From the NCBI RefSeq assembly GCF_003790525.1, contig NZ_CP033635.1: a stretch of DNA of 64,000 nucleotides. One strand, given 5' to 3'. Origin of the DNA: Escherichia coli (GTDB lineage: Bacteria; Pseudomonadota; Gammaproteobacteria; Enterobacterales; Enterobacteriaceae). This document shows positions 35,273 through 38,484 of the stretch, one piece after another. Each line of letters opens with the position of its first letter. Positions within the stretch are counted from its first letter, which is position 1. Under the pieces are notes generated by a model. It saw only the letters and a program-made list of their open reading frames with translations. It was not told where the DNA came from and searched no databases. Position numbers and translations under genes: made by a program.

Positions 35273-35944
35273 GTGGATAAGGTTTTAGATTCAGCCCTCC
35301 TTTCTTCGGCAAATAAAAGAAAGGGTATCCTTGCTATTGGCGCACATCCTGACGATATAGAATTAGGCTGTGGCGCATCGCTTGCTCGTCTTGCGCAAAA
35401 AGGAATTTATATCGCAGCCGTGGTGATGACTACCGGCAACTCTGGCACAGATGGAATAATCGATCGCCATGAAGAATCGCGCAACGCCCTAAAGATATTA
35501 GGGTGCCACCAAACTATTCATCTTAATTTTGCTGACACCCGCGCTCATTTACAGCTCAATGATATGATTTCCGCCCTGGAAGACATCATTAAAAATCAAA
35601 TTCCTTCTGATGTTGAAATCATGCGGGTATATACCATGCATGATGCTGACCGCCATCAGGATCATCTTGCAGTCTATCAAGCCTCAATGGTTGCCTGCCG
35701 AACTATTCCACAAATTCTCGGCTACGAAACCCCAAGTACCTGGCTTTCATTTATGCCTCAGGTTTTTGAATCCGTTAAAGAAGAATATTTCACAGTCAAA
35801 CTTGCTGCATTAAAAAAACATAAAAGCCAGGAACGACGCGATTATATGCGTCATGATCGCCTGCGTGCAGTTGCACAATTTCGCGGGCAACAGGTCAATA
35901 GCGATCTGGGTGAAGGCTTTGTAATTCATAAAATGATTCTTTGA
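35273..35944 (+). CDS. yaiS: LmbE/PIG-L family N-acetylglucosaminyl deacetylase YaiS
   Basis: ORF with GTG start; N-terminal AHPDDIELGCG motif typical of LmbE-like deacetylases; true start uncertain. Confidence 0.8.
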   Translation: MDKVLDSALLSSANKRKGILAIGAHPDDIELGCGASLARLAQKGIYIAAVVMTTGNSGTDGIIDRHEESRNALKILGCHQTIHLNFADTRAHLQLNDMISALEDIIKNQIPSDVEIMRVYTMHDADRHQDHLAVYQASMVACRTIPQILGYETPSTWLSFMPQVFESVKEEYFTVKLAALKKHKSQERRDYMRHDRLRAVAQFRGQQVNSDLGEGFVIHKMIL

Positions 35945-35953
35945 GCAAATTGC

Positions 35954-37150
35954 ATGAAAACCTGGATATTTATCTGTATGGCCGTAGCAATATTGCTATG
36001 GTTCCTGAGTACGTTAAGGCGTAAGCCCAGCCAAAAAAAAGGCTGTATTGACGCCATTATACCTGCTTATAACGAAGGCCCGTGTCTGGCGCAGTCACTG
36101 GATAATCTGCTGCGTAACCCTTATTTTTGCCGGGTAATTTGCGTTAACGACGGCTCCACGGACAATACCGAAGCGGTCATGGCGGAAGTCAAACGCAAAT
36201 GGGGCGACCGCTTTATTGCCGTCACGCAAAAAAATACCGGTAAAGGTGGTGCGCTGATGAATGGCCTCAATTACGCCACCTGCGACCAGGTTTTTTTAAG
36301 TGATGCCGACACCTATGTTCCGCCCGATCAAGACGGAATGGGCTATATGCTGGCAGAAATAGAGCGCGGTGCTGATGCCGTAGGCGGCATTCCCTCTACT
36401 GCGTTGAAAGGCGCGGGTCTGTTACCGCACATCCGCGCGACCGTAAAGTTGCCGATGATTGTTATGAAGCGCACGCTACAGCAGCTCCTGGGCGGCGCAC
36501 CGTTTATTATCAGCGGTGCCTGCGGGATGTTCCGTACTGATGTATTGCGTAAGTTCGGTTTCTCTGATCGTACTAAAGTCGAAGACCTTGATCTCACCTG
36601 GACATTGGTGGCAAACGGCTATCGTATTCGGCAGGCGAATCGCTGCATCGTATACCCACAGGAATGCAACAGCCCGCGTGAGGAATGGCGTCGCTGGCGG
36701 CGTTGGATTGTGGGCTACGCGGTCTGTATGCGCCTGCATAAAAGACTTTTATTTAGCCGCTTCGGTATCTTCAGTATATTTCCTATGCTGTTGGTTGTGC
36801 TTTATGGCGTTGGGATTTATCTCACTACCTGGTTTAATGAATTCATCACCACCGGGCCGCATAGTGTGGTGTTGGCAATGTTTCCGCTTATCTGGGTCGG
36901 CGTAGTTTGTGTTATTGGTGCTTTTAGCGCCTGGTTTCATCGTTGCTGGTTGTTGGTGCCTTTAGCGCCGCTTTCCGTTGTGTATGTATTATTAGCTTAT
37001 GCCATCTGGATTATTTATGGACTTATTGCCTTTTTTACTGGACGCGAACCTCAGCGCGACAAACCCACCCGCTATTCCGCACTGGTGGAAGCGTCAACCG
37101 CTTATTCCCAACCTTCTGTCACAGGAACTGAAAAACTTTCTGAAGCTTAA
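35954..37150 (+). CDS. yaiP: Family 2 glycosyltransferase YaiP, with C-terminal membrane segments
   Basis: 398-aa ORF: GT-A signatures (IIPAYNEGP..., VNDGSTDNT, DAD) followed by several hydrophobic helices. Confidence 0.85.
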   Translation: MKTWIFICMAVAILLWFLSTLRRKPSQKKGCIDAIIPAYNEGPCLAQSLDNLLRNPYFCRVICVNDGSTDNTEAVMAEVKRKWGDRFIAVTQKNTGKGGALMNGLNYATCDQVFLSDADTYVPPDQDGMGYMLAEIERGADAVGGIPSTALKGAGLLPHIRATVKLPMIVMKRTLQQLLGGAPFIISGACGMFRTDVLRKFGFSDRTKVEDLDLTWTLVANGYRIRQANRCIVYPQECNSPREEWRRWRRWIVGYAVCMRLHKRLLFSRFGIFSIFPMLLVVLYGVGIYLTTWFNEFITTGPHSVVLAMFPLIWVGVVCVIGAFSAWFHRCWLLVPLAPLSVVYVLLAYAIWIIYGLIAFFTGREPQRDKPTRYSALVEASTAYSQPSVTGTEKLSEA

Positions 37151-37709
37151 TGTTAAAGAGAAAAATATTCAGATTGCAGACCAGGTAATTATTGATGAAA
37201 CTGCAGGTGAAGTTGTTATCGGCGCGAATACCCATATTTGTCACGGTGCCGTTATTCAGGGTCCGGTAGTGATTGGCGCAAACTGCCTGATAGGTAATTA
37301 TGCGTTTATTCGTCCTGGCACAATAATCAGCAATGGCGTAAAAATTGGTTTCGCCACCGAAATTAAAAATGCGGTTATTGAAGCGGAAGCAACGATTGGT
37401 CCGCAATGTTTTATTGCCGACTCGGTAGTCGCAAACCAGGCATATTTGGGCGCACAAGTACGTACCAGTAATCATCGTCTGGATGAACAGCCCGTGTCTG
37501 TTCGAACTCCAGAGGGAATTATCGCTACCGGATGCGATAAATTAGGTTGTTATATCGGACAGCGTTCACGCCTTGGCGTACAAGTTATTATTTTGCCTGG
37601 GCGAATTATTTCCCCGAACACGCAACTTGGCCCGCGCGTGATTGTAGAACGTAATTTACCTACCGGAACTTATTCACTCCGACAAGAACTTATCCGTACA
37701 GGAGATTAA
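36999..37709 (+). CDS. yaiX: Hexapeptide-repeat (left-handed beta-helix) acyl/acetyltransferase YaiX, apparently intact; start codon uncertain
   Basis: 236-aa ORF with repeated [LIV]G-x-x-x-x-I hexapeptides (VVIGANTHICHGAVIQGPVVIGANCLIGNYAFI...); the 5' 152 nt overlap yaiP in another frame, so the real start may lie downstream. Confidence 0.7.
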   Translation: MPSGLFMDLLPFLLDANLSATNPPAIPHWWKRQPLIPNLLSQELKNFLKLNVKEKNIQIADQVIIDETAGEVVIGANTHICHGAVIQGPVVIGANCLIGNYAFIRPGTIISNGVKIGFATEIKNAVIEAEATIGPQCFIADSVVANQAYLGAQVRTSNHRLDEQPVSVRTPEGIIATGCDKLGCYIGQRSRLGVQVIILPGRIISPNTQLGPRVIVERNLPTGTYSLRQELIRTGD

Positions 37710-37710
37710 A

Positions 37711-38484
37711 ATGATAAAACGGACGTTATTAGCGGCGGCCATTTTTAGCACATTGCCCGCTTATGCCGGGTTAACTTCCATTACCGCGGGCTACGATTTT
37801 ACCGATTATTCTGGCGATCATGGCAATCGTAATTTAGCGTATGCTGAACTGGTGGCGAAAGTTGAAAACGCAACGCTGCTTTTTAATCTTTCCCAGGGGC
37901 GTCGTGATTATGAAACTGAACATTTCAATGCCACTCGCGGTCAGGGTGCGGTCTGGTATAAATGGAATAACTGGCTGACAACCCGAACGGGTATTGCCTT
38001 TGCGGATAATACGCCGGTCTTTGCCCGCCAGGATTTTCGTCAGGATATTAACCTGGCACTGTTGCCAAAAACGCTTTTCACGACCGGTTATCGCTACACT
38101 AAATATTACGATGATGTCGAAGTCGATGCCTGGCAAGGCGGCGTATCCCTCTATACTGGCCCGGTGATCTCCAGCTACCGCTATACCCATTATGACTCCA
38201 GCGATGCAGGTGGTAGTTACAGCAATATGATTTCCGTGCGTCTGAATGACCCGCGCGGCACTGGTTATACGCAACTATGGCTAAGCCGCGGAACAGGCGC
38301 TTACACCTATGACTGGACGCCAGAAACACGCTACGGCAGCATGAAGAGCGTCAGTCTGCAACGTATTCAACCGCTGACTGAGCAACTTAATCTCGGGCTG
38401 ACGGCAGGTAAAGTGTGGTACGACACCCCAACCGATGATTATAACGGTCTGCAACTTGCAGCCCATCTGACCTGGAAATTCTGA
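37711..38484 (+). CDS. yaiO: Outer-membrane beta-barrel protein YaiO
   Basis: 257-aa ORF with signal peptide (MIKRTLLAAAIFSTLPAYA), alternating aromatic/hydrophilic beta-strand pattern, C-terminal ...LTWKF. Confidence 0.85.
   Translation: MIKRTLLAAAIFSTLPAYAGLTSITAGYDFTDYSGDHGNRNLAYAELVAKVENATLLFNLSQGRRDYETEHFNATRGQGAVWYKWNNWLTTRTGIAFADNTPVFARQDFRQDINLALLPKTLFTTGYRYTKYYDDVEVDAWQGGVSLYTGPVISSYRYTHYDSSDAGGSYSNMISVRLNDPRGTGYTQLWLSRGTGAYTYDWTPETRYGSMKSVSLQRIQPLTEQLNLGLTAGKVWYDTPTDDYNGLQLAAHLTWKF

Follow-up and report, generated by a model that had tools for sequence, protein, structure and literature searches.

The yaiX gene of Escherichia coli probably begins inside yaiP, in a derived overlap conserved and constrained in two reading frames

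The stretch analyzed here (hereafter the window) is 64,000 nucleotides (nt) of Escherichia coli DNA from contig NZ_CP033635.1 (RefSeq assembly GCF_003790525.1), and the subject is the junction between two of its genes, yaiP and yaiX, and in particular the position at which yaiX begins. The genes of this region are, in order, tauA (minus strand), yaiS, yaiP, yaiX, yaiO, frmR, frmA, and frmB/fghA. The yaiP coding sequence (CDS) and the longest yaiX open reading frame (ORF), which is shut on its 5' side by a TAG at 36993-36995, share 152 nt (36999-37150). Codon positions modulo 3 are 2 for yaiP and 0 for yaiX, so the overlap is out of frame, as had been claimed in an earlier reading made from the letters alone (the sequence-only reading). 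That reading had also described the in-frame ATG codons of yaiX as lying far upstream and had pointed to GTT and AAA codons past the yaiP stop. Both descriptions held: the only canonical in-frame yaiX starts before codon 91 are ATG 36999, ATG 37017, and TTG 37026, and the yaiX-frame codons just past the yaiP TAA are AAT GTT AAA. An ATG overlapping the yaiP stop (TAATG, 37150-37152) was rejected as a yaiX start, being in the third frame with only a short ORF behind it. A 62-amino-acid (aa) ORF opening with TTG also crosses the overlap region in the third frame (36943-37131); no sign of a gene was seen there, and none was sought.

The yaiX product, assigned to the hexapeptide-repeat or left-handed beta-helix (LbH) proteins, matched the Hexapep profile PF00132 with E = 9.9e-18, which passes the cutoff, and scored 51.7 bits against LbH_EIF2B, slightly below the 54-bit cutoff of that profile. 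The junction region is 100% identical to that of E. coli SMS-3-5 (NC_010498.1), and the same junction was found in approximately 4,450 of 5,426 complete E. coli genomes. Given this frequency, and the presence of the overlap in every enteric orthologue examined (below), the geometry is no accident of one strain.

Existing annotations place the yaiX start at several positions (Table 1). The sequence-only reading had warned that annotation pipelines mis-set starts at junctions of this kind, and this was borne out by the starts of the NCBI Prokaryotic Genome Annotation Pipeline (PGAP) at CTG 37128 or GTG 37185, set against the curated MG1655 start at 37017 and the KEGG-derived 236-aa protein. The 193-aa PGAP model is applied in E. 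coli, Yersinia, Citrobacter, and Salmonella. Judged from the comparisons below, CTG 37128 was probably mis-set, and both PGAP starts probably drop conserved N-terminal sequence. The authors who used the 236-aa variant saw no Shine-Dalgarno (SD) sequence for yaiX, and their functional work employed 71-aa and 236-aa forms (PMC13058169).

A homology search with the 236-aa translation returned several hundred homologues, many of them from environmental Proteobacteria, with 204-206 aa and 86% query coverage. These distant proteins open with MWW(R/N)(E/D)L, of which the Met falls on E. coli His28 and the WW pair on W29-W30 (37083-37088). Homologue alignment had been proposed as a means of choosing between a long and a short YaiX, and conservation in the yaiX frame reaches at least the WW at 37083, 68 nt inside yaiP, which favors the long form.

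For comparison of the junction itself, 22 loci were fetched from species-representative genomes. The informative non-enteric set consisted of ten loci from Stenotrophomonas, Pseudomonas viridiflava, Acinetobacter, Sphingomonas, and several metagenome-assembled genomes (MAGs) (L011-L014, L017-L021, L023). All ten share one junction sequence pattern (...AGGTAnnnnnATGTGGTGGnnTGA), and in all ten the GT2 protein ends in TGREPxRDKPTRYxxVV[EDGA] followed directly by the stop. The corresponding DNA reads AGG TAn nnn nAT GTG GTG Gnn TGA; the LbH gene begins at ATG or GTG immediately 5' of TGG TGG, and the GT2 stop (TGA) lies 11 nt past the first W codon, which gives a 14-nt overlap. The Arg codon of PTRY in these GC-rich loci is AGG in nine of ten and AGA in the tenth. 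Judging from the sequence, this rare Arg codon seems to provide the overlapping LbH gene with its SD. The SD-like, rare-codon AGGTA stands 6-7 nt before the LbH start, embedded in a conserved motif of the GT2 protein. LbH homologues in MAGs of the candidate phyla radiation (L015, L016) and in Firmicutes (L025, L026) start M(Y/I)(R)WW without a long out-of-frame ORF overlapping from upstream, and at a further locus (L024) the GT2 gene finishes before the LbH start.

Twenty enteric loci were compared, from E. coli (three strains), E. whittamii, Citrobacter, Superficieibacter, Salmonella, Enterobacter, an accessory E. coli copy (L034), a MAG (L010), and two contigs (L032, L035). Both ORFs are kept in 20/20, and the overlap measured from the conserved ATG is about 83-152 nt. 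The codon preceding WW encodes His, Tyr, Pro, Arg, Leu, or Ala, and the Arg codon of PTRY is CGN, so the SD-like AGG is lost. The TGA is missing as well, and YaiP reads on past its position for a variable distance; from the L/V/M-V-E site to the C-terminus YaiP has 5-27 aa, of variable sequence. What all 20 loci share is an ATG 22 codons 5' of WW (21 or 23 with an indel), from which the yaiX frame is open, and this is the only canonical start conserved across them; many have a stop 1-7 codons before it. This ATG arises from a conserved Tyr/His-Gly codon pair of YaiP (NAT GGN), and it is also present in four of the ten non-enteric loci. The NAT is not decisive alone, for 75% of the Tyr/His codons in these genes end in T. 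Gene lengths agree with those of orthologues within the Enterobacteriaceae; compared with non-enteric orthologues, the N-terminus of YaiX is longer by 22 residues and the C-terminus of YaiP by as many as ~24 aa. At one of the contigs (L035, 1435-2634) a 399-aa ORF in the GT2 frame is intact, though the source gene caller gave a 96-aa minus-strand ORF there and not yaiP.

Because the YaiX extension overlaps a highly conserved YaiP motif, conservation of its MDLLPFLLD... protein sequence is not independent evidence for the yaiX frame. Synonymous sites of yaiP, which are second codon positions of the yaiX frame, were therefore scored as the fraction of identical codons among sequence pairs sharing an amino acid. 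The set comprised 14 enteric lineages; among the 11 of them that were tabulated, the yaiP segment 5' of the overlap is 53-83% identical at the nucleotide level. Codon identity rose from 0.385 in this upstream part of yaiP to 0.641 between the ATG and PTR, inside the overlap (Mann-Whitney p = 2e-5, an approximate value, as the lineages are not phylogenetically independent). Variation was most suppressed over the first nine yaiX codons, at a codon identity of 0.863, a value reached by no other 9-codon window over the final 125 codons of yaiP. Two Gly codons in this block are GGA in every lineage, as against 21% GGA elsewhere in these genes. In the non-enteric control no rise was seen at the same columns (0.42 vs. 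a background of 0.40).

Further downstream the two frames alternate in prominence. The YaiP motif TGREPxRDKPTRY is kept across Proteobacteria. At WW, 17/17 enteric loci read xTG GTG in the YaiP frame although the YaiP residue is L, V, or M, and GTG makes up 23% of the Val codons in the rest of these yaiP genes; since the xTG GTG is fixed and the YaiP residue varies, the yaiX frame is the selected one at this site. Past WW, pairwise identity is 36% for YaiX vs. 21% for the YaiP tail encoded in the same DNA. The YaiP tails of 22 aa resemble one another at their C-terminal ends, and the same DNA encodes YaiX LKxFLKL, a segment kept also in lineages with an earlier YaiP stop. On these sequence patterns, YaiP is the dominant frame from 37017 to about 37080, except over the first nine yaiX codons, and yaiX is dominant at 37083-37150. 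The pair thus shows both intact frames retained in orthologues and constraint in both frames. As other possible causes of the constraint, an RNA element was sought and had no Rfam match at E ≤ 1, no sigma-70-like site was found that would indicate an internal promoter, and RNAalifold predicted no consensus RNA structure across the 14 lineages.

The constraint also bears on the idea that enteric yaiX lacks a separate start and is expressed as a YaiP-YaiX fusion through a +1 frameshift, for example at the T6 run at 37031-37036. A +1 shift does move the yaiP frame into the yaiX frame, the run (TTT TTT in yaiP, CCT TTT TTA in yaiX) lets tRNA-Phe re-pair, and it varies little at synonymous sites. 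However, the constraint starts 5' of the run, at the ATG, and TTC breaks the run in three lineages (L027, L028, L030). No GT2-LbH fusion occurs among the 120 best homologues, and neither a stimulatory element nor an Rfam match was found. We regard frameshifting as scarcely credible.

In order to evaluate initiation, the duplex with the anti-SD was calculated upstream of every candidate start. Strong SDs were found only for yaiO and yaiS. Opening energies at 36999-37026 were 5.8-6.7 kcal/mol, below both the 5th percentile (7.1 kcal/mol) and the median (12.3 kcal/mol) for positions across yaiP and yaiX. CTG 37128 had an opening energy of 11.6 kcal/mol and a duplex energy of +1.5 kcal/mol, and the AGGA that ends 1 nt before it is too close to be a usable SD. 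The remaining non-canonical codons considered (ATT 37074, ATT 37104, ATT 37167, and ATT 37173) were rejected together with CTG 37128, each lacking an SD or deleting conserved sequence. An AlphaFold2 model of YaiX, run on a 32-sequence alignment, was used only to locate where order begins. Its predicted local distance difference test (pLDDT) scores are 72-88 at residues 31-60 and below 45 at residues 1-30, so the ordered part would begin 5' of the PGAP start at residue 44, and the 22-residue extension looks flexible in the model.

These results bear directly on the two options of the sequence-only reading, a long yaiX starting inside the overlap or a short one initiated at a non-ATG codon close to the yaiP stop. 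The long form is upheld by conservation and constraint; for the near-stop form, the suggested search for a ribosome binding site with a start codon returned no SD and no canonical codon. A near-stop start (CTG 37128, ATT 37167/37173, or the GTG equivalent to 37185 in B2 strains) would reduce the overlap to ≤23 nt and make the upstream open frame incidental. It is the arrangement of the widely applied 193-aa model, and it is favored by a published survey in which no co-directional overlap above 60 bp was genuine (PMC2478687). In several lineages the position of the 193-aa start is occupied by a canonical codon (GTG, TTG, or ATG), and AAAGAG stands 5' of ATT 37167 at a workable spacing. Such a start nevertheless deletes WW, which is selected in the yaiX frame, along with the conserved and confidently modelled residues 31-43 (residues 31-50 for a non-ATG codon close to the stop). 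Where YaiP stops early (L027, L028, L033), the stretch up to the near-stop codon remains in frame and similar as protein. CTG 37128 suffers from the poor AGGA spacing and duplex already given, and the synonymous constraint at 37016-37042 would go unexplained. A near-stop start is thus very unlikely. The suggestion of translational coupling or reinitiation at the yaiP stop fared no better: within 120 nt of that stop there is no canonical yaiX start and no usable SD, so the arrangement typical of termination-reinitiation was not found, and the stop lies 134 nt 3' of the likely start, which makes reinitiation implausible.

Between the two upstream ATGs, the sequence-only reading had gone by the longest ORF, open from 36999. 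A start inside yaiP was supported; the conserved one is ATG 37017, which gives 134 nt of overlap and is where constraint begins. ATG 36999 as the main start in Escherichia, with 236 aa and the full 152-nt overlap, would have the merits of being the first ATG past the in-frame TAG, of conservation in E. coli and E. whittamii, and of opening more easily than any other candidate (5.8 kcal/mol, in the same A/U-rich accessible stretch), and the cloned 236-aa form was active when overexpressed from a plasmid (PMC13058169). This ATG is, however, missing in most other enteric lineages, including Citrobacter, Salmonella, and Enterobacter, where the matching Tyr codon is often TAC or the residue is another one. 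Synonymous constraint begins at 37016 and not at 36999, the duplex energy is +0.9 kcal/mol with no SD, and the curated K-12 record uses 37017. The six codons from 36999 fit a spurious 5' extension outside Escherichia; the extension from 37017 does not. Use of 36999 as the main start is therefore unlikely, but it may contribute as a second start in Escherichia.

We consider it likely that yaiX is a real gene that starts inside yaiP, most probably at ATG 37017 (230 aa), in a derived, dual-frame overlap of 134 nt (37017-37150). The codon we infer from sequence, together with initiation that is probably internal and SD-independent. Several points weigh against this interpretation. No upstream yaiX candidate has a real SD, and the duplex at 37017 (-3.1 kcal/mol) is at about the background quartile. 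The mid-extension (37043-37075) is only weakly constrained beyond background (0.465), the conservation of MDLLPFLLD... is partly forced by the YaiP motif so that only the synonymous-site analysis separates the frames, and the p-values of that analysis carry the limit noted above. Several enteric lineages (L009, L027-L030) have an extra ATG or TTG 2-4 codons 5' of WW, which could be the start used in those lineages. The AlphaFold2 model is of mediocre quality (mean pLDDT 58.6), and its low-confidence residues 1-30 include WW. No start mapping for intact yaiX, by ribosome profiling or N-terminal data, was found in the yaiX/yaiP/yaiO/yaiS literature.

The junction probably arose as follows. The ancestral state would be the 14-nt overlap of the non-enteric relatives, with the yaiX ATG or GTG directly before WW and the SD-like AGG TAT inside the GT2 gene. 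The enteric lineage would then have lost the yaiX start, the AGG serving as SD, and the yaiP TGA, after which YaiP would read to the next stop and gain its variable C-terminal tail. yaiX would have recruited a pre-existing out-of-frame ATG, a by-product of the NAT GGN codons of YaiP, and this new start would add a 22-residue overprinted N-terminal extension to YaiX. Initiation would be internal and independent of an SD, in an A/U-rich stretch of low structure, with no reinitiation at the yaiP stop. Modulo 3, overlaps of 14, 134, and 152 nt are each equal to 2, so the relative phase is unchanged. On present sequences, the overlap seems specific to Proteobacteria. A further, tentative possibility is that the overlap of ~134 nt is family-wide, with both frames translated and under selection, and that the overprinted MDLLPFLLD has gained a separate role, such as docking of YaiX at the YaiP synthase or at the membrane.

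Table 1 Features of the yaiP-yaiX junction, neighboring genes, and competing yaiX annotations (window coordinates)
Feature	Position	Strand	Remarks
yaiS	35273-35944	+	223-aa ORF
ykiC	35810-35929	-	39 aa
yaiP CDS	35954-37150	+	398 aa; TAA 37148-37150; Pfam GT2 glycosyltransferase; membrane helices at C-terminus
Longest yaiX ORF	36999-37709	+	236 aa; predicted hexapeptide/LbH acyltransferase
ATG (codon 1 of 236-aa form)	36999-37001	+	Escherichia and one Citrobacter locus (L037); by-product of YaiP Tyr TAT followed by G
Suppressed synonymous variation in yaiP	37016-37042	+	yaiX codons M-D-L-L-P-F-L-L-D
ATG	37017-37019	+	Most probable yaiX start; 230 aa, MDLLPFLLD...; made by YaiP TAT-GGA (Y-G)
TTG (yaiX ORF codon 10)	37026-37028	+	Minor alternative start
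YaiP C-terminal motif TGREPQRDKPTRY	37037-37075	+	Conserved across Proteobacteria; YaiP frame the dominant constraint here
CAC (His28 of long ORF)	37080-37082	+	Site of putative ancestral yaiX ATG/GTG, lost in enterics
TGG TGG (WW)	37083-37088	+	Conserved N-terminal LbH-family motif, kept in enterics
YaiP read-through tail	37091-37150	+	Past putative ancestral TGA site (GCG 37091-37093 here); lineage-specific
PGAP start, SMS-3-5 and many other E. coli	CTG 37128-37130	+	193 aa, WP_072157198.1
PGAP start, phylogroup-B2-type strains, e.g., JJ1887	GTG at equivalent of 37185-37187 (GTA in window)	+	174 aa
PGAP, K-12 derivative			yaiX marked as pseudogene fragment
Curated MG1655 yaiX pseudogene b4579	ATG = 37017		Fragment 1 MDLLPFLLD...; 134 nt inside yaiP; 230 aa if repaired
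KEGG-derived, 2026 paper (PMC13058169)	36999		236-aa variant
yaiO	37711-38484	+	Outer-membrane beta-barrel; last gene of yaiS-yaiP-yaiX-yaiO cluster

The four genes yaiS to yaiO form a cluster, encoding a PIG-L deacetylase, a GT2 synthase with membrane helices, the predicted LbH acyltransferase, and the YaiO beta-barrel, that is conserved from enterics to Stenotrophomonas. At its distal end the yaiX TAA (37707-37709) is separated by 1 nt from the yaiO ATG at 37711, which has a strong GGAG SD (-7.4 kcal/mol). The yaiX-yaiO junction is of the ordinary coupled type, unlike yaiP-yaiX, and is a 4-nt overlap in some relatives. Some genomes hold two diverged whole clusters, as in Citrobacter braakii ATCC 51113 (L006 and L008, with approximately 64-80% protein identity to the query), and a distinct copy of the cluster is found in accessory or plasmid DNA of E. 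coli (L034, P0050/P0051, one annotated as plasmid-borne). The duplicate and plasmid copies suggest horizontal spread of the cluster. At the proximal end, yaiS is intact in the window; PGAP calls it an incomplete pseudogene in SMS-3-5. The minus-strand ykiC lies antisense within the 3' part of intact yaiS, and its product has been detected by tagging in K-12 (PMC6001520).

In K-12, a C-to-T change at the equivalent of 35828 turns CAG into TAG (Gln186 to stop) and leaves a 185-aa YaiS, and IS2A is inserted in yaiX at approximately 37298/37299; the window gene is uninterrupted. With the nonsense codon in yaiS and IS2 in yaiX, the K-12 operon has two lesions. According to a meeting abstract as cited for EcoGene (PMC3531124), repair of yaiX' in K-12 led to vegetative clumping for which yaiP was also needed, and this phenotype would fit a surface polysaccharide system. 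That K-12 tolerates both lesions, and that no SD was seen either in our scan or by others (PMC13058169), could mean that yaiX is un- or barely translated natively in enterics, as a decaying gene with a functionless overlap. We give this a very slim chance, as ~4,450 complete E. coli genomes and many enteric genera retain an unbroken ORF with a strongly conserved LbH domain, constraint at WW and at the N-terminus is frame-specific, and the clumping of the repaired strain, as cited from that abstract, was yaiP-dependent.

The 37017 start itself was already known from the curated K-12 record; what is new is the evolutionary reconstruction, the constraint in both frames, and the truncation by PGAP. 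The finding is modest and involves no new mechanism. In practical terms, yaiX is annotated from the CTG (193 aa) or the strain-specific GTG (174 aa) in thousands of RefSeq E. coli genomes and thereby lacks a conserved N-terminal segment, and the native start matters for functional work on YaiX, which has been done with 71-aa and 236-aa forms (PMC13058169). The junction also provides a well-supported counter-example to the rule that a same-strand overlap above 60 bp is an annotation error, and one in which ancestral and derived states are both available, so that growth from 14 nt to 134 nt can be traced.

The curated MG1655 pseudogene b4579 has the same ATG and implies the same 134-nt overlap as described here, but it is split by IS2, neither a published rationale for its start nor an evolutionary study of it was found, and PGAP differs from it on intact yaiX. 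Among accepted overlaps, a survey of 338 genomes found no co-directional overlap above 60 bp to be real and gave holD-rimI as the longest genuine case (32-56 bp; PMC2478687). Like yaiP-yaiX, holD-rimI is a same-strand, out-of-frame, terminal overlap that occurs across enteric genera with a length varying by lineage. At 134 nt in E. coli (about 83-150 nt at the other enteric loci), yaiP-yaiX is more than double that length and has an origin traceable to 14 nt, and it is backed by synonymous-site constraint where holD-rimI rests on alignment alone. Pallejà et al. class 5' and 3' extensions as annotation errors, and their length rule would put yaiP-yaiX in that class, whereas both extensions at yaiP-yaiX are fixed family-wide and the 5' extension of yaiX bears a selective signature of its own, unlike the pattern those authors call an error. 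Creation of overlaps through stop loss and start replacement is a recognized process (PMC3887535; class 'v' in PMC2478687), and here the loss of the TGA and the loss of the ATG are both visible. Finally, the non-enteric relatives (14 nt, with an AGG-TAT SD) and the yaiX-yaiO junction fit the familiar model of coupling across a short overlap, whereas E. coli yaiX, with its likely start 134 nt 5' of the yaiP stop and no SD, does not.

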